Assembly (NCBI GenBank): GCA_023386445.1
Contig: JAEWJR010000087.1
Coordinates: 1 to 40,000 of the forward strand
DNA from: Bacillota bacterium
GTDB taxonomy: Bacteria; Bacillota; Clostridia; Acetivibrionales; DSM-1351
Length of the DNA stretch: 40,000 nucleotides
Reading direction: 5' to 3'
Of the stretch, positions 1,031 to 16,452 are shown one piece after another. Numbering within the stretch: position 1 is the first letter of the stretch; each line of letters begins with the position of its first letter. The position numbers and the translations under genes are program-made. The notes under the pieces are model-generated. The model was not told the DNA's origin. It saw only the letters and a list, made by a program, of their open reading frames with translations, and made no database searches.

Positions 1031-1528
1031 CTAGTAAAATGTTCTTAATACGCCGAGGGGCTCAAAGTAAATTATGTATTTGCCTAAGACCTTATATATC
1101 CCATACTTTCCTTTATAATTGCAGATACACTCCTCCAGAAATTCTTCGGTGACATCAAGAAACTGGGAGAGTTCATAACTGTTCCGGATACCATTATTAT
1201 AAGCTTCAATAAACTTTTCCAGGGGAATAAGTTTTTCAAAAGCCCATCTTCTTGCTCTGCTTTCCTGCTGCAGTACGACGATCCTGTCGGTATCCCCGGA
1301 CAGCAGATTTCCGCATGAGGTATGATAATGCCCAAGTTCCTCCGCAATTACACAACAGAGTTCGGATTGGGTATCAATACTTGGATTCAAAGTGATTACC
1401 GGTTCTGTTTCACTGTCAGAATAGTAAAGACCCTTTACGTTATCCGGGAGGGGATTGGAAACTACATTTATCCCAAGTTCTTTGCATTCATCAAGCAGTG
1501 TTTCTTTCTTATCGAGGGTTTTTATCAT
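1031..1528 (-). CDS. ImmA/IrrE-family zinc metallopeptidase (XkdA-like anti-repressor protease)
   Basis: 165-aa ORF with an HEXXH motif (AEELGHYH). Its start overlaps the stop of the upstream XRE gene, the classic ImmR/ImmA pairing. Confidence 0.85.
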   Translation of the reverse strand: MIKTLDKKETLLDECKELGINVVSNPLPDNVKGLYYSDSETEPVITLNPSIDTQSELCCVIAEELGHYHTSCGNLLSGDTDRIVVLQQESRARRWAFEKLIPLEKFIEAYNNGIRNSYELSQFLDVTEEFLEECICNYKGKYGIYKVLGKYIIYFEPLGVLRTFY

Positions 1529-1842
1529 TTATTGTCCTTCTTCTTATATTTGACCTTAAGATAGTCAATGTAATTTTTTAATTCTTCCTGTGCTTCGGGG
1601 GGCAGATCATCACCATATCCATCTGTACGGTGAGCGGCAACCGTGGCTGAAATATCCCGTCCTAACAGATAATCCGTAGTTACATTAAAATAATCTGCAA
1701 CCTTAGCCAATCTGTCACCGGAAGGAACAGTATTAGACCACTTTCTAATACTGCCGTTAGCCAAACCTGTTTCCTGCTCAAGCCGAGCTATTGAAACATC
1801 TTTTTTTTCACAAAGCAGTTTAATCCTATCAAGCAAGTTCAT
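1525..1842 (-). CDS. XRE-family helix-turn-helix repressor
   Basis: ORF 1525..1875 trimmed to ATG 1842, with GGAG 7 nt upstream. The N-terminal HTH_3-like sequence is LCEKKDVSIARLEQETGLANGSIRKW. The gene is divergent from the activator gene. Confidence 0.85.
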   Translation of the reverse strand: MNLLDRIKLLCEKKDVSIARLEQETGLANGSIRKWSNTVPSGDRLAKVADYFNVTTDYLLGRDISATVAAHRTDGYGDDLPPEAQEELKNYIDYLKVKYKKKDNK

Positions 1843-1876
1843 ATATAGACTCCAATCTAAAATTACGGAAATCATA

Positions 1877-1905
1877 TTGACTTATTAGCCTACAGTCTAT
1901 ATAAT
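1877..1905 (+). promoter_or_regulatory. consensus sigma-A promoter reading rightward
   Basis: TTGACT (1877-1882), a 17-nt spacer, TATAAT (1900-1905). The spacer contains the half-site AGTCTAT (1894-1900), which is also found in the 2014-2031 palindrome. Confidence 0.5.
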
Positions 1906-2011
1906 ATTTCTATAGCTAAATAAATCGACAAAAGTTATATTTAAATTAATAAATTAAAAGACAGTACCCTGACAACATGTTTATTGTTTTGCATAAAAAG
2001 GGTATATCTTT

Positions 2012-2040
2012 ATCATAGACTATAGTCTATGAATTGTCAA
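2012..2040 (-). promoter_or_regulatory. sigma-A promoter reading leftward toward the repressor gene
   Basis: On the minus strand: TTGACA (2040-2035), a 17-nt spacer, TATGAT (2017-2012). The 18-bp palindrome sits inside the spacer. Confidence 0.45.
2014..2031. promoter_or_regulatory. perfect 18-bp palindrome, candidate repressor operator
   Basis: CATAGACTATAGTCTATG is a perfect inverted repeat. It lies in the divergent control region between the XRE gene and the activator gene. Confidence 0.5.
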
Positions 2041-2101
2041 TGCTTTTAGCTTTAAATTGAAATAATTCAGGCACAATGTAAAACAATTTTGGGAGGAACT
2101 T

Positions 2102-2533
2102 ATGAATAAAGAACGGCTCAATGAAATTATAAAATTAAAAAAAGAAGTGGAACAGCTTAGAGAAAAGCTCAGGGAATTAAGCTACGGAGATAATGAAAAA
2201 ATCGTTACTGACAAGGTCCGGGGGAGTATGGCACAGTTTCCGTATCTGCCACGGTCGTTTACATTGGTCGGCTGCGAGCAGATGTCTGAAGAGTGTATCA
2301 GGAAAAGAGATGCAATAGGAAAAAAGATAAGTGATAAATACCATGAACTTTATAGCAGGATCGACGAAGCTATAGATTTTATACAAAGTATTGATGACAG
2401 CGAGGTAAGACAGATACTTACATATAAATATATAGACGGTCTTACCTGGGAGCAGATAGGGCAATGCATGAACTATGGAACATCCTCGGTAAGATTGAAG
2501 CATGATAAATTTATGAAAAGTATAAATGATTAG
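2102..2533 (+). CDS. sigma-70 region-4-like late-gene activator (PBSX Xpf-like / ArpU-RinA-like)
   Basis: 143-aa ORF with a GGGAGG RBS. It has an N-terminal coiled-coil and a C-terminal segment ILTYKYIDGLTWEQIGQCMNYGTSSVRLKH resembling a sigma region-4 HTH. It occupies the same position as xpf in PBSX. Confidence 0.6.
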   Translation: MNKERLNEIIKLKKEVEQLREKLRELSYGDNEKIVTDKVRGSMAQFPYLPRSFTLVGCEQMSEECIRKRDAIGKKISDKYHELYSRIDEAIDFIQSIDDSEVRQILTYKYIDGLTWEQIGQCMNYGTSSVRLKHDKFMKSIND

Positions 2534-2636
2534 CACCCATTAGCACATCAAAAGCTATATAATTGTATTATTAAAAAATATACATTCAAGGACTAGATTA
2601 GGAGACACACGAAAGCAGCGTATAAATAGCGTGTTC

Positions 2637-2665
2637 AGGAGAGTTGAAATATACTCTCCTTTTTG
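2637..2665 (+). terminator. intrinsic terminator after the activator gene
   Basis: AGGAGAGT / ACTCTCCT 8-bp stem with an 8-nt loop, followed by TTTTT. Confidence 0.6.
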
Positions 2666-2990
2666 CTGCTCAAAATTTGAACAAACAATTTGAGATAAAT
2701 GCCGAAGCGGCAGTGAATAACTGGTAAAGCCTGCAAGGTTGAATGACTGTTACAAATGCATCCCCGGCTGAGGATAATAATTCAGCTTTATTTAATATAG
2801 AACTGATCAGGAAAAGCTTGAGCTTGAAAAAATAAAAAGGAGGAGAAAGAAAATGAAAAACAGACTTGAAAAATAATTGGTATTGAAAGAGTTGCATTGA
2901 CCGGGAACACCATTCAAAGAATTATGTTCTGTTACCGGGGATGAACAGAATAAGGGAACAGAGAACTAAAACCGCTGGGAGGTGATAAAC

Positions 2991-3578
2991 ATGGAATTAG
3001 CCAGCAATGCATTAACAACTGCTGAAACAGTAAGAAATAATCTTAACGGATGCCTGGTTGATATAAACGATGACCTCATTAACCAAAAAATCAACGAGGT
3101 TTCACAATTCATTGAAACCTATACGGGAAGAAAATTCAAAAATGAGATCAGGGAGGAAAAGCTTGCGGGAACAGGAACCGACGATTTGCAACTCAAGCAT
3201 TATCCGGCGGGAGAGGTGCTGTCGGTACTTATTGAAGGAAACGAAATAGACATAGGGGAGTTGGATATGGAGAATAACAGTGAGACCGGCACCGCTGTTT
3301 TATTCAGGGAGCCTGGTTGGCCTGCAAGCGACAGAAGAAATATTTTGGTGAAGTATGAGTCTGGATATATTCTTCCCAAGGATCAATCGGAAGGACGGCC
3401 CAGAACTCTGCCATATGACCTGGAGGGTGCCTGCATTGACCTGACAACAATGAAATATCTGAACAGGGATGCTGAAGGACTGGCAGAGCGCAGAGCGGGA
3501 GATTTTGCCGAGAAATACCTGAACGATTTACCGGCTTCTATAAAACTTATACTTGACCTGTACAAAAAAAGGGGCTGA
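2991..3578 (+). CDS. gp6-like head-tail connector protein (XkdH position)
   Basis: ORF 2982..3578 trimmed to ATG 2991, with GGGAGG 8 nt upstream. The N-terminus TTAETVRNNL...DDLINQKINEVSQFIETYTGRKF resembles the Phage_connect_1 family pattern, recalled from memory. Confidence 0.6.
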   Translation: MELASNALTTAETVRNNLNGCLVDINDDLINQKINEVSQFIETYTGRKFKNEIREEKLAGTGTDDLQLKHYPAGEVLSVLIEGNEIDIGELDMENNSETGTAVLFREPGWPASDRRNILVKYESGYILPKDQSEGRPRTLPYDLEGACIDLTTMKYLNRDAEGLAERRAGDFAEKYLNDLPASIKLILDLYKKRG

Positions 3579-3583
3579 AGAGG

Positions 3584-3946
3584 ATGAGATACAATCAAAA
3601 ATGCATTATTTACAGGAGTGTGACAGATGTAGGATATTTAAACCGGCCTGATACTGTCGCAATTCAAAAAGGACCTTATCCGTGCTGTACAAGCCTGCCA
3701 TGGCCCTGGAAGAAGAGGGGACGCTACAGTCAGAAGATTCCGCAGGCAGAAATAAGTATTGAACTGGTTTTGTACGGGCCTGAGGAAATGGACATCAAAG
3801 CAGGTGATATTGTTTGTATGCCGGTAACAGTTGACGAAACCACCAAAGAGGTCATAATGACGGGCTCTGAAAAGTACATTGCTTCAATGCCCTACAAAGT
3901 CCGGGGTCACCAGGAATGCGTCATTTCGTTGAAAAGGAGTGTTTAA
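3584..3946 (+). CDS. head-tail adaptor / head-closure-like protein (XkdI position)
   Basis: 120-aa ORF with a GAAGAGG RBS. It is tightly packed between the connector-like and tail-completion-like genes. The assignment rests on size and synteny only. Confidence 0.45.
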   Translation: MRYNQKCIIYRSVTDVGYLNRPDTVAIQKGPYPCCTSLPWPWKKRGRYSQKIPQAEISIELVLYGPEEMDIKAGDIVCMPVTVDETTKEVIMTGSEKYIASMPYKVRGHQECVISLKRSV

Positions 3947-4401
3947 TGATTACTATTGAAGATATCATGGATGCAATTAATATTTCTCTGCTGTCCGCAT
4001 TTCCTGAACATGGTTTTTTTATAGAAAATATACCTCAAAACTTTAAAAGACCTTCTTTCTTTATTCAGTTAATATCTGATACCTGGGAGGATTCCAACAG
4101 AGCAGCAACAAAAGAAAGGGCATCCTTTCAGATTATATATTTTGGAACACAAAACGCCTACGGAATCACCGGGATAACTGAAAAGTTAAGTGTATATGAA
4201 ACTGTAAAAGGCCTTTTCAAGAACGGATTTATACCGGTAAAAAATCAGGCGGTAAAGCTTTCGGAGAAAGGCTTCGGAGCAGAGCTAAGAGAAAATGAAA
4301 TCAATTTTACTGTGGATTTTGAATATTTCAATTTAAGAGAAGAAAATGTACAAAATCTGCAGAAAGCAAAAGAAATCATAATAAATGTAAGGGAGGATTA
4401 A
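3946..4401 (+). CDS. tail completion / tail terminator-like protein (XkdJ position)
   Basis: ORF 3916..4401 trimmed to ATG 3946, which forms a TAATG overlap with the previous stop and has a GGAG RBS. It lies immediately upstream of the sheath gene. Confidence 0.5.
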   Translation: MITIEDIMDAINISLLSAFPEHGFFIENIPQNFKRPSFFIQLISDTWEDSNRAATKERASFQIIYFGTQNAYGITGITEKLSVYETVKGLFKNGFIPVKNQAVKLSEKGFGAELRENEINFTVDFEYFNLREENVQNLQKAKEIIINVRED

Positions 4402-4405
4402 AAAG

Positions 4406-5476
4406 ATGGGATTACCAAACATAAGCATAGCATTTAAATCAGCAGCAATAAGTGCAATAAAAAGAGGGGAGAGGGGCATAGTTGCTCTAATCATGAAGGA
4501 CAGCACAAATAATGGCTATAAGGAGCTTCTGACCGTTGTGGATATACCTTCTGATCTGTCCGATGCCAACAAGGCTGCCATTCAATTGGCCTTTACCGGA
4601 GGAGTAAAGCCTCCGTCAAAAGTACTTGTTTATGTGCAGCCTTTAGCAAGTACAGATTACACCGAGGCACAGGCATATCTTGAAACGGCCAAGTGGGACT
4701 ACCTGGCGGTAGTGGGCATAGAGTCAGATGAGATGGCGGGAATTGCAGCCTGGATAAAAGCTCTCAGAGAGAGCCTGAATAAAAAGGTAAAGGCTGTTTT
4801 ACCAGGAATAGCGGCAGATTACGAGGGAATTATAAACTTCACAACCGGGACAATAAAGGTTGGCTCCACAGCATACACCAATGTGCAGTATGCGCCGCGT
4901 ATAGCCGGATTGCTGGCAGGAACACCGCTCAACATATCAGCTACATTCCAGGTGCTGCCTGAAGTTACCGATGTTTCACCAAGGCTTACCAAAACACAGC
5001 TGGATACCGCCATTGACAGCGGCAAATTTGAGATATTCAACGATGGTGAGAAGGTAAAAGTGGCAAGAGCGGTAAATTCACTTGTAACCACTACCGCCGA
5101 CAAAGGTGAGGTTTATAAAAAGATCAAAATAATTGATATTCTTGACCTGATCTACAGTGATATAAAGAGAACGGCCGAGGACAGTTATATAGGCAAATAT
5201 CCCAACAGCTATGATAACAAGATACTTCTTATTACCGCAATCAACGGATATCTGGAAGGTCTTGCGGCAGACCAGCTATTGGATAGCAATGCTGAAAATT
5301 CCGCCAATATAGATATCGCCGCCCAAAAGATATACCTGAAATCAATTGGAGTAAATACAGATAACCTTACCGACCAGGAAGTAAAGGAGTACAACACAAA
5401 TGACAAGGTATTTCTGGGAGGGGCTATAAAACCGCTGGATGCCATTGAGGATATATCACTGGTAATGGCTATATAA
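4406..5476 (+). CDS. contractile tail sheath protein (XkdK-like)
   Basis: 356-aa ORF with a strong RBS. The N-terminus MGLPNISIAFKSAAISAIKRGERGIVALI is typical of the PBSX-type sheath family. The tube gene follows. Confidence 0.9.
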   Translation: MGLPNISIAFKSAAISAIKRGERGIVALIMKDSTNNGYKELLTVVDIPSDLSDANKAAIQLAFTGGVKPPSKVLVYVQPLASTDYTEAQAYLETAKWDYLAVVGIESDEMAGIAAWIKALRESLNKKVKAVLPGIAADYEGIINFTTGTIKVGSTAYTNVQYAPRIAGLLAGTPLNISATFQVLPEVTDVSPRLTKTQLDTAIDSGKFEIFNDGEKVKVARAVNSLVTTTADKGEVYKKIKIIDILDLIYSDIKRTAEDSYIGKYPNSYDNKILLITAINGYLEGLAADQLLDSNAENSANIDIAAQKIYLKSIGVNTDNLTDQEVKEYNTNDKVFLGGAIKPLDAIEDISLVMAI

Positions 5477-5503
5477 ATAAAGAGGAGAAGAGGTGACTGA
5501 CAT

Positions 5504-5932
5504 ATGGATGCATCAAAAGTAATGAATGGAAGCTGGGGAGAAGTGTGGATGGATGGAGAGAAGATTTCCGAATGTACCGCTCTTCAGGCAAAAATTGATA
5601 TTAAAAAAGAAGACGTTCCCATGTGCGGCAGAGCTACACCGGGTAAAAAATTATCCGGCTGGGAAGGTAAAGGCTCTATGAAGTTAAATAAAGTTAATTC
5701 CCGTATGGCAATAAAGATCGGCAATCTTATAAGAACGGGCCAGGAGCTCAAGGTGACTATTGTTTCAAAGCTGGCAGACCCCGCGGCATACGGTGCCGAA
5801 AGAATCGTACTGAGGAATGCTTCATTCGATGATTTGACTCTTGCGGATTGGGCTGCTCAGAAAAATGGGGAAGTTGACTGCCCGTTTACATTTGAAGACT
5901 ATTACTTTATGGACGTAATAGTACCGCAATAA
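5504..5932 (+). CDS. tail tube protein (XkdM-like)
   Basis: 142-aa ORF directly after the sheath gene. The sequence VMNGSWGEVWMDGEKISE is typical of XkdM-type core tail proteins. Confidence 0.85.
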   Translation: MDASKVMNGSWGEVWMDGEKISECTALQAKIDIKKEDVPMCGRATPGKKLSGWEGKGSMKLNKVNSRMAIKIGNLIRTGQELKVTIVSKLADPAAYGAERIVLRNASFDDLTLADWAAQKNGEVDCPFTFEDYYFMDVIVPQ

Positions 5933-5980
5933 TGTGAGGGATGCCTCAAAATGAGAGAATTGCAAATAATCAAATACCCA

Positions 5981-6114
5981 TACCAGTGCGCGAGTACAAC
6001 TTCGATAGATGGGAAGCTCTGTTAAAAGTGCATGTCTGAAATTGTGGTGAACCATACAAATTTCAGACATGTACTTTGTGAGCAATCCATTTGTTGAAGT
6101 TAGTATGGGAGCAC
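5981..6114. repeat. structured repeat element, copy A (candidate ncRNA or MITE-like element)
   Basis: It shares 15-nt identical blocks with copy B: CGCGAGTACAACTTC (5989-6003) and TTGAAGTTAGTATGG (6094-6108). Smaller shared blocks include AAAAGTGC, GTGAACC.TAC and CTTTGTG.GCA. A 15-bp closing helix and a 13-bp internal hairpin are visible. Confidence 0.6.
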
Positions 6115-6182
6115 TATTTCAATTTTGTCAGGTTTGCGGCACCACCTTTATTAAACTTTATATAAAGACGGAGGGAAAGACA

Positions 6183-6575
6183 ATGAAAAATGTAATGGAT
6201 ATATTGCTCACAATGGATGAAAGCAGGCTTGAGGCATCAACCCGGGATATTGAAATAAAAAGGCTCTCTGAAGAAACCGGGGAAAAGGTGGTATTCACCT
6301 GCCACAGTCTTTCAATGGACAAGTACATTCAGATAAAGGAAAACGCAACAAACGGTGATGAGATTGACACACTTGAGCTGCAGATATTTGCCATCATCGA
6401 AGGTGTAAAAAACCCTAACTTTAAAAGTGACGAGCTCATAGGCAGGTTTAAGGCTGCAACACCCAAGGAACTGGTGAAAAAGCTGCTCCGCCCCGGAGAA
6501 ATAAACAGGATATTTGAAATCATATCTGAACTGTCCGGTTTTGGAGGAGATACGGTACAAGAAATAAAAAACTGA
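6183..6575 (+). CDS. tail assembly chaperone (XkdN-like), short form
   Basis: ORF 6069..6575 trimmed to ATG 6183, with a GGAGGG RBS. It sits between the tube and tape-measure genes. The sequence IEIKRLSEETGEKVVF is typical of XkdN-like chaperones. Confidence 0.75.
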   Translation: MKNVMDILLTMDESRLEASTRDIEIKRLSEETGEKVVFTCHSLSMDKYIQIKENATNGDEIDTLELQIFAIIEGVKNPNFKSDELIGRFKAATPKELVKKLLRPGEINRIFEIISELSGFGGDTVQEIKN

Positions 6576-6742
6576 TAAGGACGGATGGACGGACCAGCTT
6601 AATGTACTATTGCTGGAAAAAAGACAAAAGCATTCGTCCATCTGTCTTCTGGAACCAGTCCGAGGCTGATTGGCTTGTAATAGATGCGTTTGCCAGGCAG
6701 GAAATAGAGGATGAAAAAAATTCTCATATAAATGTTCTTTAA
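6183..6742 (+). CDS. tail assembly chaperone, -1 frameshift-extended form
   Basis: The slippery heptamer A AAA AAC (6566-6572) lies just before the stop. The -1 frame stays open for 57 more codons (..LIRTDGRTSLMYYCWKKDKSIRPSVFWNQSEADWLVIDAFARQEIEDEK..) and ends at TAA 6740-6742, immediately before the tape-measure RBS. Confidence 0.55.
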
Positions 6743-6756
6743 AAGGAGGTGACATT

Positions 6757-8745
6757 ATGGCAGATGAAGTAAATAACATAGCTGCACTGAAAGACAATTT
6801 TACATCGGCGCTCAATAATATGATGAAGCAGCAAAAAAATTTTAAAAGGGAGACTCAGGAACTGTACAAACAACTGGGAATGCTATATGGGAACAGGATG
6901 CAGCTAAAAGTTGATACAAAGGCGGCAGGAAAGAATCTGACAATGACCTTAAGGGAGGCTCAGAAAGAATATGAGAAAATGAATAAACAAATTCGTGCCG
7001 AGGCTTCAAAAAAAATCAAGTTACAATTTGATACTTCTGACACAAATAAAAATATAAAAAAATTTGAAAAAGATATTAAAAAAGTAGAAACAGATATAGA
7101 TAAAATCAACAAAAAGAAAGTAGACACTCAAGGTATGTCATCCGGAAGCGGAAAATCAATATTTGAGCCTATAAAAGGGATTGCCGGCAAAATATTTAAT
7201 ATCTTCAGCTATGTGACAGGAGCCGTAAACAGTGCTGCAAATACAGGTATATCGACGCTTAATATTGCAGGGCAGTTGGAGCAAACGCAAACAATTTTTG
7301 AAATGATGCTCAAAAACAACAAAAACGGGCAGAAGATGATTGAGGATTTAAAGGATTTCTCCATAAAATCACCTTTTGAATTTGGAGATCTGGCAAAGAC
7401 AACTCAAACTGCACTTTCCAAGGGATTTAAGCAGAATGATATGATAAGTCTGCTGCAGGATGCCGGTGATGCGGCCTCTGGTACTGGAAAAGGTCAGGAA
7501 GGTGTTGACAATATAATCAATGCGCTGGGTCAGATGCAAAGAAAAGGCAAGGCTTCAGCTCAGGAAATGGATATGCTGACCGATAACGGAATTGATGCAT
7601 GGGAATATGTGGCTAAGGGTATAAAAAAATCGGCTGACCAGGCAAAAAATCTTGCGGAAAAAGGGTTATTACCGGCCGATAAGGCAATTCAGGCAATCCG
7701 GAATGGTATGAGACAGGATTTCAGCGGCAATATGAATAAACAGTCAACAACGTTATTAGCTACGTTCGCAAAAATAAAGAAGTTTGTAACTTTAAATGTT
7801 CTGGGATCCTTCGGAGAAGGTATACGGCAGGGCATACTGCCAAGTCTTCAAAGGTTTACCGACAAGCTGGCCAAAAACGGGGCCGGAATGAAGTTGTTCA
7901 AACAGAATATCCAGAATGTTGGGAAATCGATAGGAGAATTTCTAGGAAACAATGCCGACAGGCTGGTAAACTTTTTTGAAAAGCTATTTAGCGATGAGCA
8001 GTTTCAAAAAGCGGATTTTGGAGAGAAAATCAAAATGACATTGGACAAGATTTATATCTCAATAAAAGCATGGTTTGATGGAGAGGGCGGAAGCAAGATT
8101 AAGGAAGCCTTTAAAAGCATGGCGGACGGTGCAATGCAAATTATATTAGTTGCAGCTACTGAATATATTCCTAAGTTTGGAGATTTGGGTTTGCAAATGG
8201 GTGGGGCAATGATTGAGGGGATAGCTTCAGCTTTTGATAGAAATTTCCCTGGATATGATTTTAGAGAATGGCGAAGGGAAAAATCAGCTCAACTAGATCA
8301 AAAATTATTTGATTCACTTAATAATTCTGGAATAGAAGAGTGGTTGCAAAAAAGAGACCCTAGTAGAAAGCAAAAACAAATTGAGTTAGTTCGTAAAAAG
8401 TTAAATAATCCTAAAGTTAGTAAAGAGGAAAAAGAAGATATAAAAAAATTCTATCCAGAGGCATACCAGATAGTAACAGGCAATACACCCTCCTCAAAAA
8501 ATTCAAAGTCTATGCCATATGCATTCGGCGTCAGCAGGGTTCCATACAACAATTACCCTGCACTGCTGCATGAGGGGGAGAGGGTTCTCACAAAGCAGGA
8601 AGCTAACAAAACGGCTGGGTTCTCCATAAACATTGCAAAGCTTGCCGACCATTTGGTAATAAGAGAAGAGGCCGACATTGAAAAAGTCACCGAAAGATTG
8701 GCTCTAAAGCTGTATAAATATAGCCTGAACACAGGAGGGGTATAG
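6757..8745 (+). CDS. tail tape measure protein
   Basis: 662-aa ORF with a coiled-coil N-terminus and a TP901-type core (FEFGDLAKTTQ...NALGQMQRKGKASAQEMDMLTDNGIDAWE). It is in the canonical position. Confidence 0.9.
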   Translation: MADEVNNIAALKDNFTSALNNMMKQQKNFKRETQELYKQLGMLYGNRMQLKVDTKAAGKNLTMTLREAQKEYEKMNKQIRAEASKKIKLQFDTSDTNKNIKKFEKDIKKVETDIDKINKKKVDTQGMSSGSGKSIFEPIKGIAGKIFNIFSYVTGAVNSAANTGISTLNIAGQLEQTQTIFEMMLKNNKNGQKMIEDLKDFSIKSPFEFGDLAKTTQTALSKGFKQNDMISLLQDAGDAASGTGKGQEGVDNIINALGQMQRKGKASAQEMDMLTDNGIDAWEYVAKGIKKSADQAKNLAEKGLLPADKAIQAIRNGMRQDFSGNMNKQSTTLLATFAKIKKFVTLNVLGSFGEGIRQGILPSLQRFTDKLAKNGAGMKLFKQNIQNVGKSIGEFLGNNADRLVNFFEKLFSDEQFQKADFGEKIKMTLDKIYISIKAWFDGEGGSKIKEAFKSMADGAMQIILVAATEYIPKFGDLGLQMGGAMIEGIASAFDRNFPGYDFREWRREKSAQLDQKLFDSLNNSGIEEWLQKRDPSRKQKQIELVRKKLNNPKVSKEEKEDIKKFYPEAYQIVTGNTPSSKNSKSMPYAFGVSRVPYNNYPALLHEGERVLTKQEANKTAGFSINIAKLADHLVIREEADIEKVTERLALKLYKYSLNTGGV

Positions 8746-8747
8746 TT

Positions 8748-9362
8748 ATGGAATTTTGGTTGTCATACAATAACAGGGAAGAGATTTTACGGCTGCCTGT
8801 ACCGCCTCAGGAATTCCAAATAAGCCATGGAACAAATGTCAATGTGCTTGATATTAACACCTTTGGCGAAATTGCCGTAATAGGCAGGGGGAAATTAGCC
8901 GAGCTTGAGATTTCGTCCTTTTTTCCGGCACAGGAATACTCATTTTGTGTATATAAAGGTCTTCCTGAACCCTATGACTGTGTGAACCTTATTAAAAAAT
9001 GGAAGGATACCCGGCGGCCCATAAGACTTACTATAACAGGAACAAATGTAAACCTCGCCTGTGCCATAGAAAATTTCAGCTATGGAGAGAAGGATTGTAC
9101 CGGGGATGTTTATTTCACTCTAAACTTAAAGGAATACAGGTTCCCCGGCGCTCCCGGTTCAAAAATCATACCTGAATTAAAGGCCGCCAAGAGACCGGCT
9201 GAAAAAGCAATTCCGAAGAAATACACTGTTAAAAGCGGGGATTGTCTCTGGGCAATAGCAAAAAAGCTATATGGGGATGGGAGTAAATACTCCATATTGC
9301 TAAGTAAGAATAAAATACCTGACCCAGATTTAATTTATCCAGGTCAGACATTGGTGGTGTAA
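8748..9362 (+). CDS. LysM-domain tail protein (XkdP-like)
   Basis: 204-aa ORF with a C-terminal LysM motif, YTVKSGDCLWAIAKKLYGDGSKYSILLSKNKIPDPDLIYPGQTLVV. Confidence 0.85.
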   Translation: MEFWLSYNNREEILRLPVPPQEFQISHGTNVNVLDINTFGEIAVIGRGKLAELEISSFFPAQEYSFCVYKGLPEPYDCVNLIKKWKDTRRPIRLTITGTNVNLACAIENFSYGEKDCTGDVYFTLNLKEYRFPGAPGSKIIPELKAAKRPAEKAIPKKYTVKSGDCLWAIAKKLYGDGSKYSILLSKNKIPDPDLIYPGQTLVV

Positions 9363-9365
9363 AGG

Positions 9366-10376: not shown

Positions 10377-10386
10377 GGGTGAAAGA

Positions 10387-10647
10387 ATGGATGATCCTTT
10401 TAAATTAATAATTGATGTAATGAGGAAGGAGGGGAGTATATACAACCCTCCTTCAGTGATGCTGGGGAAAGTAATAAACCCGGCTCCCGATTTATTGATC
10501 AGTGTCAACGGTCTGCAGCTTGACAAGGATGATCTGAAAGCTGCGGAATACCTGACAGGCTCTTTAAAAAACGGTGATGAGGTGGTAATACTCCCCGCGG
10601 CAGACAAAAAAGTATTTCTTATAATATGCAAGGTGGTGAGTTTATGA
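10387..10647 (+). CDS. small baseplate protein (XkdR-like)
   Basis: 86-aa ORF with an RBS. The assignment is by synteny with xkdR. Confidence 0.6.
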   Translation: MDDPFKLIIDVMRKEGSIYNPPSVMLGKVINPAPDLLISVNGLQLDKDDLKAAEYLTGSLKNGDEVVILPAADKKVFLIICKVVSL

Positions 10648-11069
10648 GTATATTTCCAGCTGTAGAAGAAGGGCAGGCGGAGGAAGTTCAGGAAATAGCG
10701 GATAGCGTTGTTTTAAGGGAGTATGCCTGGGACTTTATACGTAATGATTTTATATTTGAAAACGGCAGACAAAAGATTGCAGAAGGCCTGGAGGCATTAA
10801 AAATATGGGCGTACAAGGCTTTGGTAACAGAAAGGTATAAGTACCTGGCATATAGCTGGGATTATGGGCAGGAGATTGCAAATTTGATTGGCAGCAATAT
10901 ATCTTCAGAATTTGTTAAAAGTGAAGTGAAAAGGTACATCGAAGAAGCATTTTCGGTCAACCCGCATATCAAGGGAATAAAAAATCTCTCAACAGCAATT
11001 GAAGAGGATACAATCTCCGTTGATTTTACAATTTTAAGTGATTTAGGGGAGGTGGATATAAATGTATGA
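10644..11069 (+). CDS. baseplate wedge protein (XkdS-like, gp25/W-like)
   Basis: ORF 10626..11069 trimmed to ATG 10644, which forms an ATGA overlap with the previous stop. It lies directly upstream of the baseplate J gene. Confidence 0.65.
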   Translation: MSIFPAVEEGQAEEVQEIADSVVLREYAWDFIRNDFIFENGRQKIAEGLEALKIWAYKALVTERYKYLAYSWDYGQEIANLIGSNISSEFVKSEVKRYIEEAFSVNPHIKGIKNLSTAIEEDTISVDFTILSDLGEVDINV

Positions 11070-12111
11070 AGCCCAAACAGAGGAAGCAATAAAGCAAAGG
11101 ATGTTAGGCAGGATCAGCACTGATATAGACAAATCGGAAGGATCTTTTGTAAATGATGCGGTTGCACCTGTTTCTGTGGAACTGGCTCAAAGCTATATAC
11201 AGCTGGAAAGATTGCTGGCGCTGGCTTTTGCACAGACCTCATCAGGAAACTATCTGGACATGAGAGCCGGGGAATACGGGATAAGCCGTAATATGGGGGC
11301 AAGAGCAGCCGGTAGTGTCAGGTTTACAGGGAATAACGGAGTAGAAATACCTGTCGGCACTCAGATACAAACCGGCGGAGGACTTATCTATACAACAACC
11401 GACAGTGGAATTTTAACAGAAGGAATACTGGATTTGCAGGTTACTGCCGAGGATATAGGGATAAAATACAATGTGCCGTCAGGAAGCCTGATTCAATTGC
11501 CTGTACAGGTAGTAGGAATAACCGGGGTAACAAATATTGAACCAATTACAGGCGGAAGTGATATAGAAAGTGATCAGAGCCTGCTGCAAAGATTGTTGAT
11601 TAAGGTTAGGATGCCTTCAACATCCGGGAATGCCAACGATTATAAGTTGTGGGCTTTAAGTGTGGGCGGTATAGGTGACGCAAAAGTATTTCCCGTATGG
11701 GACGGCCCCGGAACAGTGAAAGTAATTGTTATTGATACAGAAAAGAAGCCGGCTAATATGAATCTTGTGTCAAGTGTTTCCGGGGTGATTGAAAACAACA
11801 GGCCTATTGGTGCCAAAGTAGATGTAGCTGCAGCACAACCGCTTATCATAGATATCAATGTTACAGTAGTAAAAGATTCCTCCCCTATCTTGGAGCAGAT
11901 AAAAGCGGAAGTTGCTGTAAAAGTCGGCGATTATTTAAAATCAATTGCTTTCAGACAGAGCTACGTGAGCTATGCACAGGTCGGTAATGCCATAATGCAG
12001 AGCAGCGGTATTGAGGATTACTCAAACCTGTTGGTAAATAACGGTTCTGCCAATATAACAGTAGGAGCAGAAGAGGTAGCAATTGTCGGGATGGTGACTG
12101 TAAATGAATAA
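11062..12111 (+). CDS. baseplate J-like protein (XkdT-like)
   Basis: 349-aa ORF. The N-terminus MYEAQTEEAIKQRMLGRISTDIDKSEGSFVNDAVAPVSVELAQ is typical of the Baseplate_J family. Confidence 0.9.
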   Translation: MYEAQTEEAIKQRMLGRISTDIDKSEGSFVNDAVAPVSVELAQSYIQLERLLALAFAQTSSGNYLDMRAGEYGISRNMGARAAGSVRFTGNNGVEIPVGTQIQTGGGLIYTTTDSGILTEGILDLQVTAEDIGIKYNVPSGSLIQLPVQVVGITGVTNIEPITGGSDIESDQSLLQRLLIKVRMPSTSGNANDYKLWALSVGGIGDAKVFPVWDGPGTVKVIVIDTEKKPANMNLVSSVSGVIENNRPIGAKVDVAAAQPLIIDINVTVVKDSSPILEQIKAEVAVKVGDYLKSIAFRQSYVSYAQVGNAIMQSSGIEDYSNLLVNNGSANITVGAEEVAIVGMVTVNE

Positions 12112-12643
12112 AGCTGATACTTTAAAATCCTATATACCTGAGCTTATTCTTAAGAGTAAGGTATTTAATGAAATATATGATACTCAAGGCACCGAGCTTG
12201 ATTCCTTGTGGGAATCAATTAACAGCATCCTGGACCAGTGTTTTGTTGATAAAGCTACCTGGGGACTAAAATTCTGGGAGGAATTTCTCGGTATACCTGT
12301 TGATGAGACAAGGGAGACAGACTTCCGGCGCGGGGTGGTCAAATCGAAAATACGTGGGGTTGGTACCGTAACAGTAAAACTGATGCAAACTGTTGCCCAA
12401 AGCTATGATAACGGAGAAATAAATATTATCGAAAATGCTGGTGAATACAGCTTTACAGTGAAATTTACCGGCATCAAGGGTATCCCTCCCAATCTGGACG
12501 ACCTGAAAAAAGCAATTGAAGAAATAAAGCCGGCCCATTTGCAAGTTATGTATACATTCAAATACAACATGTGGGATTATGTAAAAACACTGACATGGAA
12601 GCAAGTAAAAGAAAATACATGGGAAAACCTGAAAGTGAGGTAA
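12104..12643 (+). CDS. tail protein XkdU-like (DUF2313-type)
   Basis: 179-aa ORF overlapping the end of the baseplate J gene. The motif LPELIL..KVFNEIYDTQGTELD..W and the synteny both fit. Confidence 0.7.
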   Translation: MNKADTLKSYIPELILKSKVFNEIYDTQGTELDSLWESINSILDQCFVDKATWGLKFWEEFLGIPVDETRETDFRRGVVKSKIRGVGTVTVKLMQTVAQSYDNGEINIIENAGEYSFTVKFTGIKGIPPNLDDLKKAIEEIKPAHLQVMYTFKYNMWDYVKTLTWKQVKENTWENLKVR

Positions 12644-12647: not shown

Positions 12648-14066
12648 ATGTCGACAAACACAACCAATTATAACCTTGAAAAACCCGGCCTCAATGAGAC
12701 TGCCGATATTGAAGTAATCAATCAAAACATGGACATAATTGACACCGGCCTGAAAAATGTAAGTGATAAGGCCGACGGAAAAATCAGCAAGTCCCTGGCG
12801 ACTGCTGCAAATCAGTTCCTGCTGTCATCCTCGGTAGGACAGTTTGTTGTAAAAACTGTTGATGAAATAAAGTCTTTGCTTGGACTGAAGGGGGCAGCAG
12901 AGAAGGAATTTAACTCTGCTGGTGGTGTCGCTTCATATGATGCAGTTCAATCGCATTTGTCGGATTACGTGAGGCAGCCGGGGTATGCAATAGCAACAGG
13001 AAGTGTCAATTCATATGCTGTAACCTTAAGCCCGGCACCGACATCCTACATAGATGGAATGGGCATAGTTGTAAAAATCAGTGTAGCTAATACGGGTGCT
13101 GCGACAATCAATATTAATGGTCTTGGGGCAAAGCCTATGGTTGATGGTAAGGGCAATACTCTTACTTCCGGCAAGCTCAGGCTGAACGGTACCTATTCGC
13201 TCAAGTATAATTCCACATCAGGAAATTTTATATTACAGGGTAGCGATTCTTCCGGCGATGCTACTCCTGCTGATTTACTTGCCGGGAAAACTGCGAGCAC
13301 GGATGCAGGAGATATAACAGGAACAATGGCGTATAAAGCAGGTGCTTTTCCCGGTGGTGCGGCGGGAACTGATGGCAATGGCAATGTATCAATACCCATT
13401 ACCTCTGATGGGTACTATCCGGTTGGAGCAAGTGTATACTCATGGGATGGTGATTTTATCGCAGCAAATATCAGAGCAGATAGAAATATATATGGGTTAC
13501 AGGGTTCTATTCCTGTCAGAACCAATACCGATACAGGAGGCTCATATCCAGCAGCTGTAAATGATAGTGTTTACGACAGTAATATATATCTGATGCCTCC
13601 CGCAGGGTATTATGATGGCAACGTATGGGTGCATAGAGAACTGCCTGGATTAATAGCTGCAAACATTCGCCAAGGTGTTACAATTGGTACTGGTGGCAGT
13701 GGCAAGATTGTGGGAAGCTTTGCAGGCAAATCATGGTATCAAGGAACGGCAACAGCTGTTGGCAACATGGTTTTTTGGTACAATGATAATTCCTCTATGA
13801 ATGGGGCTGGTATAGAAGTACCGTTGAATTTGACATTTACTCCCAAAACTATACTTTTATGGCAGGCAAGTGGCCCGCAGGCGGGACAGCTTTGGTCTTT
13901 TTCAACAGATGAAGCAATCTACACAAATGGTAGATATCCTGAGGTAATGGCAAGATGGGGACGAGGATTTGCACGCGAAGGCACATATTGTTATATGGTG
14001 AGTACAGGTATTAGATTTCCTACTCCATCAGCAGGCTTTGAATATACATTTTTATTAATTGGTTAA
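12648..14066 (+). CDS. tail fibre / receptor-binding protein
   Basis: 472-aa ORF. The N-terminus TTNYNLEKPGLNETADIEVINQNMDIID is typical of phage fibre anchors. The middle is Gly/Ser/Thr-rich and the C-terminal domain is distinct. Confidence 0.75.
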   Translation: MSTNTTNYNLEKPGLNETADIEVINQNMDIIDTGLKNVSDKADGKISKSLATAANQFLLSSSVGQFVVKTVDEIKSLLGLKGAAEKEFNSAGGVASYDAVQSHLSDYVRQPGYAIATGSVNSYAVTLSPAPTSYIDGMGIVVKISVANTGAATININGLGAKPMVDGKGNTLTSGKLRLNGTYSLKYNSTSGNFILQGSDSSGDATPADLLAGKTASTDAGDITGTMAYKAGAFPGGAAGTDGNGNVSIPITSDGYYPVGASVYSWDGDFIAANIRADRNIYGLQGSIPVRTNTDTGGSYPAAVNDSVYDSNIYLMPPAGYYDGNVWVHRELPGLIAANIRQGVTIGTGGSGKIVGSFAGKSWYQGTATAVGNMVFWYNDNSSMNGAGIEVPLNLTFTPKTILLWQASGPQAGQLWSFSTDEAIYTNGRYPEVMARWGRGFAREGTYCYMVSTGIRFPTPSAGFEYTFLLIG

Positions 14067-14084
14067 TAAAGGAGGATGAATATT

Positions 14085-14369
14085 ATGCGAACTTTAGTAA
14101 TTTTTGATGAGGCAGGCTTTATAGTTAACCAAATGCGAGGTAGCGATTTAAGGGAGCCTGTCGGAATACCATTTTTATGGATTGAAATACCCGAAGGAAA
14201 ATATTTAAAAAGTATTGACGTAAGCGGAACAGAACATAAACCAGTATATGTGGATTTACCAAAATCAGAAACGCAAAAGCTACAAGAACTGGTCAACCAG
14301 CTAATAGTGGACAATCTGAACATGCAACAACAGATTGATACCTTAATAACAACAGGATTGGGGGTGTAA
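14085..14369 (+). CDS. hypothetical protein in the XkdW position
   Basis: ORF 14076..14369. ATG 14085 has better spacing from GGAGG (14071-14075). The C-terminus is a coiled coil. The assignment is by position only. Confidence 0.45.
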   Translation: MRTLVIFDEAGFIVNQMRGSDLREPVGIPFLWIEIPEGKYLKSIDVSGTEHKPVYVDLPKSETQKLQELVNQLIVDNLNMQQQIDTLITTGLGV

Positions 14370-14371
14370 AA

Positions 14372-14488
14372 ATGTTTGAGAGACTGAATTATTTATATCA
14401 TGCAGGTAAGCTTACGGCAGAACAGTTAGACATAGCAGTATCAAAGGTTTGGATTACAGCAGAACAAAAAACAGAAATAATCGGATAA
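14372..14488 (+). CDS. XkdX-family small phage protein
   Basis: 38-codon ORF not in the supplied track: MFERLNYLYHAGKLTAEQLDIAVSKVWITAEQKTEIIG. It matches my recollection of the XkdX pattern (Y...G..T.EQ......G.IT.EQ..EI.G) and sits in the XkdX position. Confidence 0.7.
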   Translation: MFERLNYLYHAGKLTAEQLDIAVSKVWITAEQKTEIIG

Positions 14489-15160
14489 GGATAATATAGC
14501 GAAATAAAAGGAGGTAGTATAAGTGACAGAACATATTAACAAAGGAAGCGAATCAACAGAAAAAGGAATGGCTGTCCTGGGTAGAGCAGAAGAACAGCCA
14601 ACAGTAATAAATTTTTCAACTAATATTACTATGAATACAGAGATCTCTTTAAGTAAGATAGTAAACAATATTAGTCTCGTGCTCCAAAGGAAATTCCTAC
14701 AATGGTCTGTAAATAAGATGAGAAATTTTATTTTTGACCGACTATTTGTGTTTGCATAGGGTGTAATGATTGCATTTTGGAGGACAATCGCTGAGGAATC
14801 ACTTATTAGTTTGAGATCTTTATTCTCTCCCGATAATTTCTCAATTTGATTGTTTCTACCAATAAAGCAATTTTCAATTATAATTTTGGTTATCGTTGCA
14901 GATGGGTCAGAAGGTATTTCATCATCCTTTACGTCGGATAAGCCAATTATCTTTCCTTCAATCATACCGAAATTAGTAAATATCATTACAGTTGTATCAG
15001 CAGATGTTGAAAGGCCTTCTATTTTACCAGATGTTAAGGTGTTTATAGTTACATTTATACTATCTAATGTAATAGATTTTAAATCTATGCGGTCTTTTAA
15101 TAGTTTAGGTAACTCATTTTTATTCACAAGTATCACTTCCCTTCCAGAAAATTCTATCAC
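14441..15160 (-). CDS. hypothetical protein on the opposite strand to the tail operon (uncertain extent)
   Basis: 239-aa ORF. The N-terminal 135 aa or so look protein-like and beta-rich (SINVTINTLTSGKIEGLSTSADTTVMIFTNFGMIEGKIIGLSDVKDDE). The C-terminal 100 aa are F/C/L-rich and overlap XkdX and the + ORF. It has a GTG start with no recognisable RBS. The segment is AT-rich. Confidence 0.3.
   Translation of the reverse strand: MIEFSGREVILVNKNELPKLLKDRIDLKSITLDSINVTINTLTSGKIEGLSTSADTTVMIFTNFGMIEGKIIGLSDVKDDEIPSDPSATITKIIIENCFIGRNNQIEKLSGENKDLKLISDSSAIVLQNAIITPYANTNSRSKIKFLILFTDHCRNFLWSTRLILFTILLKEISVFIVILVEKFITVGCSSALPRTAIPFSVDSLPLLICSVTYTTSFYFAILSLSDYFCFLFCCNPNL
14523..14759 (+). CDS. hypothetical small protein (uncertain; conflicts with the antisense ORF)
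   Basis: GTG start with a strong AAAGGAGG 7 nt upstream. 78 aa with a hydrophilic N-terminus. It overlaps entirely the 3' part of the minus-strand ORF 14441..15160. Confidence 0.3.
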   Translation: MTEHINKGSESTEKGMAVLGRAEEQPTVINFSTNITMNTEISLSKIVNNISLVLQRKFLQWSVNKMRNFIFDRLFVFA

Positions 15161-15296
15161 TAGGGAAGGAATTCGACAATGTGAAGATTAATAAAATGTG
15201 TAATTAATGTATAAAATTTAAAAGCACGGACTAAAAGGATTACTCAATAATGGGTAGTCCTTTGTTTATTACAAAAATCATGAAAGGGTGAGACAA

Positions 15297-15983
15297 ATGA
15301 AACAAGAAGGCAAATTCATTTTAATGGACCGGGATGAACTCAGGGTTTACATTGAAGGGCTGAAGGGAGCTAAGACCTTCAAAACTATCCAGCAGCATCA
15401 TACGGCAAGTCCGGCATATAAGGACGTTAAAAACAACCATTTTCAGTTAATGAAGGGTATGGAAAATTATCATGTCGGCACACTGAAAATGAGTGAAATA
15501 GCCCAGCACTTCAGCGCATTTCCTGATGGAACCATATGTGCAGGCCGGCCGCTTACAAAAGATGGCGGAGGGTTCCTGAATCCACTTAATAAGGACTCAA
15601 TAACTACTGAGAACGTTGGGAACTTTGATTCTGATATTATGACAGAGGATCAAACGCAAAGTATCATATTGCTGAATGCTCTTCTGTGCAAAAAGTTCAA
15701 TATAGTTCCTTCCACTTCAACGCTGATATATCATTGCTGGGTGCAAAACAAGTCGTGCCCGGGACTGAAATGGTTCGAAGGAAATACCAGGACAGCTGCG
15801 GAGAGATATTTTATACCTCTTATAAAAGCGGCAATGGAAGAGCCCATGACTTTTGAGCAAGCATTAGACATTGTTTCAAGGAAAGTAAATACGGTATATC
15901 CATACTGGCTTAAAAGAAGGGATATAGATCCGGCATTTTCAGCCTTAATTATAAAAGTTGCAAAAGCGTTTGGAGGTGAGTAG
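15297..15983 (+). CDS. N-acetylmuramoyl-L-alanine amidase (Amidase_2/PGRP-type endolysin)
   Basis: ORF 15288..15983, with ATG 15297 preferred. The motifs QQHHTAS, TENVGNFD and IYHCW..NKSCPG fit the amidase_2 fold. The holin gene follows. Confidence 0.8.
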   Translation: MKQEGKFILMDRDELRVYIEGLKGAKTFKTIQQHHTASPAYKDVKNNHFQLMKGMENYHVGTLKMSEIAQHFSAFPDGTICAGRPLTKDGGGFLNPLNKDSITTENVGNFDSDIMTEDQTQSIILLNALLCKKFNIVPSTSTLIYHCWVQNKSCPGLKWFEGNTRTAAERYFIPLIKAAMEEPMTFEQALDIVSRKVNTVYPYWLKRRDIDPAFSALIIKVAKAFGGE

Positions 15984-15984
15984 C

Positions 15985-16452
15985 ATGGAAAAGATTAATA
16001 CTTTTAAGGCTTCAACTGTTGCGTTATCAGCAAGTGTGTCAGCCGTGTTAGGGTGGTTCGGCTGGTTGGTCATAGCTTTTGTAGCATGCATGTCTGTGGA
16101 TTGGATTACCGGATCTATGGCTGCTTGGAAAAGAGGAGAGTGGGAAAGCAGGATTGCACGTGAAGGTATATGGCATAAAACAGGCAGTATTATAGCTGTT
16201 TTGGTAACATTAATACTTGATGCGGTTATTGGCAATGTAATAAATAATATTCCAAGTGTCTCACTGCCGTTTACCTACACAGTTCTTTTAAGTCCGGTAG
16301 TTATAGTATGGTACATACTCACCGAGCTTGGCAGTATAATTGAAAATGCGGGCAGGATGGGAGCTCCTGTACCTGGTTTCTTACAGAAGGCTATTGCACT
16401 TTTAAAGGAGAGTATTGATGCAGCAGGAGAGAAGACTACAGAAAATAAATAA
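15985..16452 (+). CDS. phage holin (holin_4_1 / toxin-secretion-lysis holin family)
   Basis: ORF 15958..16452 trimmed to ATG 15985, with a GGAGG RBS, right after the amidase stop. It has several TM helices and the motif DWITGSMAAWKRGEWESR. Confidence 0.85.
   Translation: MEKINTFKASTVALSASVSAVLGWFGWLVIAFVACMSVDWITGSMAAWKRGEWESRIAREGIWHKTGSIIAVLVTLILDAVIGNVINNIPSVSLPFTYTVLLSPVVIVWYILTELGSIIENAGRMGAPVPGFLQKAIALLKESIDAAGEKTTENK

Follow-up and report, generated by a model that had tools for sequence, protein, structure and literature searches.

A candidate R-type phage-tail-like bacteriocin locus in a Ruminiclostridium species, lacking a head module and retaining a head-to-tail adaptor and stopper

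The 40,000-nt stretch analyzed here (positions 1 to 40,000 of contig JAEWJR010000087.1, assembly GCA_023386445.1; hereafter the window) probably carries a chromosomally fixed, inducible R-type (contractile) phage-tail-like bacteriocin, or tailocin, of a Ruminiclostridium species from the R. cellobioparum group, as predicted from its genes. The element lacks the block of genes for terminase, portal, protease and capsid, and it harbors, directly upstream of its tail genes, two genes of the kind that complete phage heads: a head-to-tail adaptor and a stopper (Table 1). The adaptor is 90% identical to that of R. cellobioparum DSM 1351, and 93% identical to that of the metagenome-assembled genome (MAG) OH_PBB_181.

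The set of contractile-tail genes is complete, and Pfam and PHROG searches recover the terminator, sheath, tube, frameshift chaperone, tape measure, hub, spike, gp25, J, gp48-like, and fiber functions. The plus-strand operon is uninterrupted from position 2991, and its genes overlap or are spaced by 1–10 nt. Most of the genes named in a preliminary description of this DNA are placed as listed there by hidden Markov model (HMM) or profile matches; the exceptions are the XkdW-like gene, a 97-aa open reading frame (ORF) recognizable by position only and without an HMM match, and the XkdX-like ORF, for which the match is weak (TIGR01669, E 0.007). The baseplate genes (8748–12643) are all intact, with Pfam E-values from 1e-11 to 8e-67. 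In the chaperone gene, for which the PF08890 match lies in an ORF at 6183–6575, a canonical -1 slippery heptamer (A_AAA_AAC) occurs at 6566–6572 and is followed by a 57-codon extension ending at 6742, as judged from a three-frame reading; a 46-aa downstream ORF is present in all relatives. In the relatives, the tape measure protein (TMP) is 642, 658, 662, or 679 aa long, steps that are smaller than one sheath layer. The particle of diffocin, the contractile bacteriocin of Clostridioides difficile, comprises 32 layers over a length of 146 nm (PMC10996793), and its TMP ORF is 826 aa; by scaling from these values, the 662-aa TMP of the window would correspond to ∼25–26 sheath layers and a length of ∼115–120 nm. 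The TMP is also the most divergent gene of the element, with 68–79% aa identity and a ratio of nonsynonymous to synonymous substitution rates (dN/dS) of 0.22–0.44 among its orthologs in L001, L100, and L102 (locus handles of this study).

The large terminase (TerL), portal, protease, and capsid sequences of four related prophages have no tblastn match in the 40-kb window. The window begins only 1 kb left of the gene for the ImmA-type metallopeptidase, and an exact-protein look-up of ImmA provided a further contig (L003) that is 99.99% identical to window positions 1–11528 (11.5 kb) and extends 9 kb further left. These 9 kb encode a class II aldolase, an FGGY kinase, a sugar isomerase, and a GntR/LacI regulator, along with YjbQ, SfsA, desulfoferrodoxin, and DeoC, and no head genes were called in them, nor in the 23 kb to the right, which are occupied by host genes. 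The absence of the head block, put forward in the preliminary description, is borne out by the tblastn searches and by this left flank with its sugar-metabolism genes. The absence of replication genes is likewise upheld: according to HMM searches, none of the ORFs between 1 and 17.4 kb has an integrase or replication domain. Comparison of the whole locus with 50,697 phage records by megablast returned no match.

The four nearest sheaths (72–76% identity) all belong to head-bearing phages (L057, L058, L185, and L186). In L057 and L186, the gene order is an activator-like gene, an integrase-like gene, the small terminase gene (terS), TerL, portal, protease, capsid, and a small ORF, followed in the neck by the adaptor, a 105-aa protein, an HK97-gp10-like protein, the terminator, and the sheath. 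The same head block occurs in L058 and L185, in which a fused 210–213-aa, Phage_HCP-containing neck protein replaces the adaptor and the 105-aa protein, and no activator was detected upstream. The HK97-gp10-like neck gene is found in all four of these phages and is absent from the window element. Because these nearest sheath relatives are head-bearing and have a known gene order, the set of deleted genes can be pinned down: the element appears to have lost everything from terS through the small ORF behind the capsid gene, and additionally the gp10-like gene located after the 105-aa protein and ahead of the terminator, a deletion that had gone unnoticed in the preliminary description. The position of the gp10-like gene in the nearest phages, and its analogy to P2 gene S in BceTMilo (PMC5411513), make its product a likely head-tail joining component.

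The same headless layout occurs at the same site in the isolate R. cellobioparum DSM 1351, the MAG OH_PBB_181, and ∼15 metagenomic contigs, a synteny that extends across species; the shared chromosomal site lies between the aldolase-kinase-isomerase operon and a tRNA-Arg gene. In comparison with R. cellobioparum, all 17 element genes are intact, lack internal stops, and are of nearly equal length except for the tape measure, and comparison with sister strains likewise reveals no disabling mutation in any of them, in agreement with the initial view that the tail, regulatory, and lysis genes are intact and tightly coupled. Nei-Gojobori estimates against R. cellobioparum give dN/dS values of 0.04–0.25 for these genes (0.06–0.14 for the baseplate), with dS values of 0.24–0.59 as compared to 0.38–0.62 for the flanking host genes, and the neck genes depart from neutrality with binomial p-values of 1e-3 to 1e-7. 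Because the headless layout is shared and dS falls in the host-gene range, the head must already have been gone before the lineages split. Purifying selection has maintained the remaining genes ever since, which argues against recent decay. Together with the cross-species synteny and the exchange of the receptor-binding cassette (see below), the low dN/dS sustains the earlier interpretation of a domesticated rather than a decaying element. Within the operon, dS is lower over the adaptor-sheath segment (0.24–0.29) than over the rest. The stopper of L002 has 15 differences to that of R. cellobioparum and 28 to that of the window, though the L002 flanks are those of the window's species, which suggests that the neck/sheath segment recombined between lineages.

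The adaptor assignment is supported by a structure search, in which the AlphaFold2 (AF2) model (pLDDT 88.5) has as its top Foldseek matches the adaptors of T5, DT57C, phage 812, RcGTA, and Mycofy1. This protein is 54% identical to the adaptor of prophage L057, and it retains a C-terminal Y-basic motif that is invariant among phage homologs. The stopper was assigned by profile, its single-sequence AF2 model having a pLDDT of 46: the narrower profile (A5) gave PBSX XkdH, which is classed as a gp16-type stopper (PMC9701221), and a broader profile (A4) matches SPP1 gp16 and the RcGTA stopper. It is 47% identical to the product of the 105-aa gene of L057, and the A5 alignment reveals a lineage-specific insertion of ∼14 aa. 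Searches of PDB sequences by phmmer with the adaptor, stopper, and terminator gave nothing useful. The genome scan with the adaptor profile used a nine-sequence alignment. By the ratio of nonsynonymous to synonymous differences (pN/pS), the adaptor (0.22; binomial test against neutrality, p 3.5e-7) and the stopper (0.29; p 7.5e-4) are constrained as strongly as the collar (0.25). Given this selection, both probably remain in use, for instance capping the collar end or serving there as an assembly factor. The retention of connector genes had been described as unusual for a tailocin, and indeed both genes are absent from diffocin and from the other headless clusters found. As a separate observation, residues 168–257 of the capsid protein of a Desulfotomaculum prophage (L013, 8216–9355) weakly resemble the central part of the adaptor (window 3048–3320; tblastn E 1e-4 in a small database, 31% over 93 aa), which may reflect chance or a shared small domain.

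The fiber gene is conserved at one end only. Its N-terminal ∼200 aa (42% of the protein) are 90–93% identical in sister strains, while the C-termini are unrelated and the total lengths in sister strains are 277, 414, 567, 580, and 737 aa. Nucleotide homology to the relatives ends at 12872 or 13241 and returns at 15234, just before the amidase gene, the latter having 87% nt identity in the relatives. The cassette of the window matches that of a head-bearing prophage (L103), with 63% identity for the fiber, 82% for the 97-aa ORF, and 89% for the XkdX-like ORF. These patterns are consistent with a conserved N-terminal anchor and a C-terminus that is exchanged between strains together with its accessory genes, and an anchor with an exchangeable receptor-binding module would be expected of a strain-targeting weapon. 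A strain-specific 239-aa antisense ORF shares 48 nt with the XkdX-like gene; Pfam, NCBIfam, and PADLOC gave no match for it, nor does it have a homolog among the fetched loci, and it could be a moron, an immunity gene, or a chance ORF. In L104 (12367–17041), from a conspecific sister strain, the interval between the fiber accessory genes and the amidase gene contains two reverse transcriptase/maturase genes of group II introns and a gene for a 413-aa Big_2/fn3 protein.

At the left of the element, ImmA and the XRE repressor, whose reading frames share a 4-nt overlap, are divergent from the activator gene, and 457 bp of non-coding DNA follow the latter, just as first described. ImmA (dN/dS 0.06) shares 31% identity with its counterpart in the diffocin locus and 46% with that in another headless locus (L140), and the XRE repressor (dN/dS 0.05) is 51% identical over 70 aa to the XRE protein of the diffocin locus. 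The 259-bp intergenic region between the xre and activator genes (1843–2101) contains three operator-like sites, the perfect 14-bp palindrome TAGACTATAGTCTA and two degenerate copies of it, and there is no further match (≤3 mismatches) anywhere in the 40 kb. The predicted promoters, rightward at 1877–1905 and leftward at 2040–2012, each score 11/12 in the promoter scan and overlap the operator-like sites, the positions of which are conserved in L012, L011, and L001.

The activator (dN/dS 0.05) had been called Xpf-like; it resembles sigma region 4 only, with a weak match to Sigma70_r4 (E 0.003), a weak match to PF05263, and DUF722/ArpU-like and RinA-like matches, and orthology to Xpf was not demonstrable. 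Its homologs stand before the terminase, 8.4–8.5 kb upstream of the sheath, in the head-bearing phages L120, L123, and L162; in L018 and L052, they precede the adaptor by ∼8 kb. The leader behind the activator gene is ∼90% conserved across species, with indels only at 2591. A hairpin scan located a terminator-like hairpin just past the activator gene (2637–2660), and a conserved strong ribosome-binding site precedes a 7-codon mini-ORF at 2853–2876; these could be a vestige, as yet unproven, of the first late gene. Comparison of the leader with phage head regions, L057, and the diffocin gap by tblastn and blastn gave no similarity, deletion scar, or head-gene remnant, and nothing outside the clade is similar to it. 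The predicted late promoter is presumed to lie within this leader.

From the gene set and comparison with relatives, and by analogy with diffocin, the Xre/Xpf pair of PBSX, and ImmR/ImmA of ICEBs1, we infer the following history and mode of action. A temperate myophage of the PBSX/diffocin type would have integrated beside tRNA-Arg(CCT), and would then have lost the terS-TerL-portal-protease-capsid block, the gp10-like neck gene, and any integration or replication genes, leaving the repressor/protease switch, the late activator, the whole tail, the fiber cassette, and the lysis genes. In the uninduced cell, XRE bound to the three operators (1846–2029) would repress the rightward promoter. DNA damage or another signal would render ImmA active and thereby inactivate XRE (diffocin is SOS-inducible; PMC6088184), after which the region-4-like activator would be made and would turn on the late promoter in the 457-bp leader, and with it the late operon and the lysis genes. 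The tail would be built on the baseplate, with its length set by the 662-aa tape measure and its end capped by the collar, and the holin and amidase would lyse the producer cell. The fiber would then bind a surface receptor of related strains, upon which the sheath would contract and the tube would puncture the envelope; the swappable fiber C-terminus and accessory genes would set the killing spectrum.

Several observations weigh against the tailocin interpretation. Particles, induction, and killing are predictions from the genes, and we infer both the late promoter and the link to the SOS response. Pairwise comparison (BLASTP for the collar) detected no homology of the activator or the collar to the corresponding diffocin proteins. 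No genome with an empty site was found, and the boundaries of the element are consequently approximate. The search for head genes covered the 40-kb window and 9 kb to its left, so heads encoded elsewhere in the genome are conceivable. Finally, head-completion proteins that are conserved in a headless locus are awkward for a pure tailocin, and the loss of the gp10-like gene with the adaptor and stopper kept is the one feature left unexplained. It is doubtful, if conceivable, that these two proteins have either been recruited to a headless particle (e.g., as a collar cap or plug) or belong to a split system that completes heads in trans. Under recruitment, the 14-aa insertion of the stopper might substitute for the lost gp10-like bridge; if true, either alternative would represent a new architecture for a tailocin or for an element resembling a gene transfer agent (GTA).

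The split system in particular, in which the locus would donate tails or supply the tail half of a PBSX/GTA-like element, and heads from a separate locus or another prophage would be completed by the adaptor and stopper, is unlikely. It would account for the bona fide portal-adaptor fold, the retained Y-basic motif, and a constraint on adaptor and stopper equal to that on the collar, and the SPP1 equivalents are active solely at the portal of a head that is already filled (PMC9701221). The gp10-like gene, however, which separates stopper from terminator in the four nearest phages, is deleted here, no head gene occurs in the 9 kb on the left or the 23 kb on the right, the lineage-specific insertion suggests a changed function of the stopper, and the swapping of fibers from strain to strain fits a killing device. 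Quite improbable is a decaying prophage remnant without a functional particle, intact-looking only through recent deletion, even though the head module is gone, no att repeats were found, a repeat element is inserted inside the operon, and group II introns and other cargo occupy the fiber-lysis interval of sister strains. The deletion is older than the split from R. cellobioparum (dS 0.24–0.59, the host-gene range), 17 of 17 reading frames are kept with dN/dS ≤0.25 and p-values against neutrality down to 1e-7, the -1 frameshift signal and its extension ORF are retained, and all insertions are intergenic. A headless contractile cluster with a terminator cap would also be expected of an extracellular contractile injection system (Afp/PVC/AlgoCIS-like), whose particles bring a protein toxin into eukaryotic or bacterial targets, and the variable cassette contains uncharacterized ORFs (14441–15160). 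This identity was rejected and is hardly credible: the ORFs of the locus include no AAA+ ATPase, Afp-type duplicated tube or sheath genes, or recognizable toxin cargo, whereas a holin, an endolysin, an XkdN-type chaperone, and a PBSX-type baseplate are present, and the tail is 72–76% identical to those of ordinary temperate myophages. The reading as a tailocin remains the preferred one.

Table 1. Features of the predicted tailocin locus and its borders (window coordinates; a dot marks features without strand).
Feature	Coordinates	Strand	Remarks
192-aa multi-pass membrane protein	435–1013	+	Abuts ImmA; present in all relatives
ImmA/IrrE-type metallopeptidase (XkdA-like anti-repressor protease)	1031–1528	-	PF06114 (Peptidase_M78), E 8e-13
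XRE-family repressor	1525–1842	-	HTH_26/HTH_3; RstR-like
Switch region	1846–2040	.	Three operator-like sites; two face-to-face sigma-70-like promoters
Operator-like sites	1846; 1886; 2016		TAGACTCCAATCTA at 1846; TAGCCTACAGTCTA at 1886; perfect 14-bp palindrome TAGACTATAGTCTA at 2016
Late-gene activator, sigma-region-4-like (ArpU/RinA/Xpf-type), 143 aa	2102–2533	+	phrog_36, E 5e-20
Non-coding leader, 457 bp	2534–2990	+	Stands where the head module would be
Head-to-tail adaptor (gp6/gp15/YqbG class)	2991–3578	+	PF05135; phrog_442, E 5e-23
XkdH/gp16-like stopper (head-closure), 120 aa	3584–3946	+	Profile match to PBSX XkdH (3F3B), E 1.3e-9
Tail terminator/collar	3946–4401	+	PF20765, E 8e-15; same Pfam family as diffocin collar CD1362
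Contractile sheath, short 356-aa class	4406–5476	+	PF04984 and PF17482
Tail tube	5504–5932	+	PF09393, E 2e-48; dN/dS 0.04
Structured repeat insert	5942–6144	.	Between tube and chaperone genes; absent in R. cellobioparum
XkdN-type tail assembly chaperone with -1 programmed frameshift	6183–6742	+	PF08890, E 2.5e-23
Tape measure protein, 662 aa	6757–8745	+	PF20155; dN/dS 0.22 vs. R. cellobioparum
LysM/XkdP-like protein	8748–9362	+	Pfam
YqbQ/XkdQ hub	9366–10376	+	PF24032
DUF2577/XkdR	10387–10647	+	Pfam
gp25-like sheath initiator/XkdS	10644–11069	+	Pfam
Baseplate_J/XkdT	11062–12111	+	Pfam
Mu-gp48-like/XkdU	12104–12643	+	Pfam
Tail fiber/receptor-binding protein	12648–14066	+	phrog_28171 and tail-protein match
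Fiber accessory genes: 97-aa ORF in XkdW position and 38-aa XkdX-like ORF	14076–14488	+	
Antisense ORF, 239 aa, strain-specific	14441–15160	-	AT-rich part of the cassette, GC 34%
N-acetylmuramoyl-L-alanine amidase, Amidase_2 (endolysin)	15297–15983	+	PF01510, E 4e-11
Holin (holin_4_1)	15985–16452	+	PF05105, E 2e-35
149-aa membrane protein	16581–17030	+	77–85% identical in L100–L104; accompanies the element in all relatives
tRNA-Arg(CCT)	20325–20401	-	ARAGORN and Rfam; 3' end faces the element

The preliminary description gave the element a span of 1031–16452. The gene content of this span stands, and the right end probably lies further out, at ∼17285, because the conserved 149-aa membrane ORF, which has no NCBIfam or PADLOC match, travels with the element in all relatives; nucleotide homology with the relatives continues to 17285. 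On the left, membership of the 192-aa membrane protein in the element is uncertain. This protein has no significant family match in HMM searches that included NCBIfam and PADLOC, and it is fast-evolving, its aa identity to R. cellobioparum being 80%, as compared to ∼95% for its neighbors (dN 0.10, dN/dS 0.16). The diffocin locus (L060) also has a gene for a small membrane protein beside its ImmA (1895–2311, minus strand). A membrane protein adjoining ImmA may have an exclusion or immunity function, or the arrangement may be a coincidence.

To the right of the lysis genes, the window encodes a spore-photoproduct lyase, a 5'-nucleotidase, an SH3 protein, and tRNA-Arg(CCT), followed by host genes to its end. 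This tRNA gene flanks the element in L100–L102, lies ∼280 bp past the element end in L101, and is the likely ancestral integration site; no convincing att-type direct repeats linking it to the left end were found. In the window, a 3-kb insert (17286–20247) with the spore-photoproduct lyase, 5'-nucleotidase, and SH3_3 protein genes separates the element from the tRNA gene, and this insert is absent from the R. cellobioparum-type relatives L100 and L101. Other cargo, a Big_2/fn3 protein and a DUF2569 protein, occupies the junction in L102. The tRNA-proximal junction is an insertion hot spot. A 22-nt holin-like fragment at 19659–19680, 91% identical to 16387–16408, suggests remnants of another lysis cassette. 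Further right, on the minus strand (30661–32877), is an Agr-type quorum-sensing pair, composed of AgrB (32290–32877) and a GHKL/SpoOB-type histidine kinase (30661–31995); it adjoins a stand-alone SNF2/SNF2_assoc helicase (27269–30502), for which the DpdE/ZorD model matches cover the generic helicase core only.

Within the operon, the structured repeat between the tube and chaperone genes is an insertion that was not part of the ancestral operon. It is ∼200 nt long and palindromic, the 250-nt interval that contains it (5933–6182) has a minimum free energy of -92 kcal/mol, and diverged copies occur in the window at 23743–23804 and 23939–24009, and in L012 at 1138–1204. It looks like a small MITE/REP-like mobile repeat, and might act as an attenuator past the highly expressed sheath and tube genes.

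Among known systems, diffocin (CD1359–CD1376; 8V3T) is likewise a Gram-positive headless contractile tail locus, and has been described as the only widely recognized, well-documented Gram-positive R-type tailocin (PMC10538166), as well as being the basis of engineered Avidocin-type antibacterials (PMC4453579). For comparison, the CD1363 sequence was rebuilt from a PDB alignment, and the diffocin locus was fetched from IMG/VR as L060 (100% identity). Both loci have ImmA and XRE on the minus strand, then an activator on the plus strand, a non-coding gap, and the collar, sheath, tube, XkdN chaperone, TMP, LysM, hub, gp25, J, and gp48-like genes in the same order. The sheath is an end-to-end match to CD1363 (8v3t, ∼355-aa class; E 1e-84, 45% identity). 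In diffocin, however, the collar (CD1362) comes directly after a 146-aa activator and a 248-bp spacer, with no adaptor or stopper; an extra Cro-like gene follows XRE, and the TMP and hub are 826 and 509 aa long, respectively. The tail proteins of the window are 31–50% identical to those of diffocin, as compared to 46–72% for the head-bearing prophage L057. An identity as the diffocin ortholog was rejected, given sheath identities of 45% to CD1363 and 72–76% to the four head-bearing phages; as the sheath is nearer to these phages, head loss was independent of that in diffocin, whose own best sheath matches are phages too.

A survey of 120 loci of the sheath family found TerL, portal, or capsid genes upstream in most of those with enough flank. 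The survey was conducted by transitive phmmer and is blind to head families unrelated to its seeds; manual inspection of several loci without apparent heads showed them to be phages whose portals are of the SPP1 type (e.g., L105). In addition to the window locus, diffocin, Dehalobacter sp. DCM (L059), the metagenome contig L140, and possibly L170 are headless. In L059 and L140, a repressor or ImmA stands beside a terminator-sheath-tube-to-fiber cluster with host genes upstream and no head genes; neither locus has an adaptor or stopper, and their sheaths (60 and 47% identical to that of the window, respectively) are no closer to it than phage sheaths are. L059 (CP092282.1, 3471790–3492854) has a LexA-like repressor, a region-4/GerE-like regulator, and an M23 peptidase upstream of the terminator, and its tape measure, at only 364 aa, would make for a tail of about half the length. 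In the diffocin-like L140 (Ga0209467_1000137, 7815–11060), ImmA has molybdopterin-dehydrogenase genes (FAD-binding and Fer2 subunits) as its direct upstream neighbors, and small ORFs, the terminator, and the sheath come next. Because no headless lineage is closer to another headless lineage than it is to phages, heads were lost on several occasions, and such loss seems to be recurrent in Clostridia.

The preliminary description termed the cluster PBSX-like, which is apt for its Xkd-type tail and neck homologs, whereas the closest known system is diffocin, though not as an ortholog. With PBSX and skin of Bacillus subtilis, the locus shares the switch of XRE and an XkdA-type peptidase, a late activator, an XkdH homolog, an XkdN-family chaperone, YqbQ, an XkdR/S/T/U-type baseplate, an XkdX-like ORF (a weak match), and a terminal lysis cassette. 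PBSX keeps its terminase, portal, protease, and capsid genes, and packages 13 kb of host DNA; unlike PBSX, the window locus has neither this block nor an XkdI-type gp10-like gene. BceTMilo of Burkholderia cenocepacia, derived from P2/KL3, represents a clean deletion of head genes at the border of the head and tail modules of a temperate myophage. There, the head-completion gene L was removed at the breakpoint along with the head (PMC5411513), a gene loss to which that of the gp10-like gene can be likened. BceTMilo is Gram-negative and has a P2-type tail, and the window locus instead retained two head-completion genes; head-completion proteins that outlive the head offer an entry point to what an adaptor and stopper may be capable of without a portal. 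The phage relatives, at 72–76% sheath identity, are close enough to reconstruct exactly which genes went, and the locus offers a natural series of swappable fiber cassettes and length-variant tape measures. If the prediction is correct, an environmental cellulolytic clostridium would have arrived independently at the same solution as diffocin: an ImmA/XRE switch, an activator, a tail, and lysis genes kept, and the head deleted.

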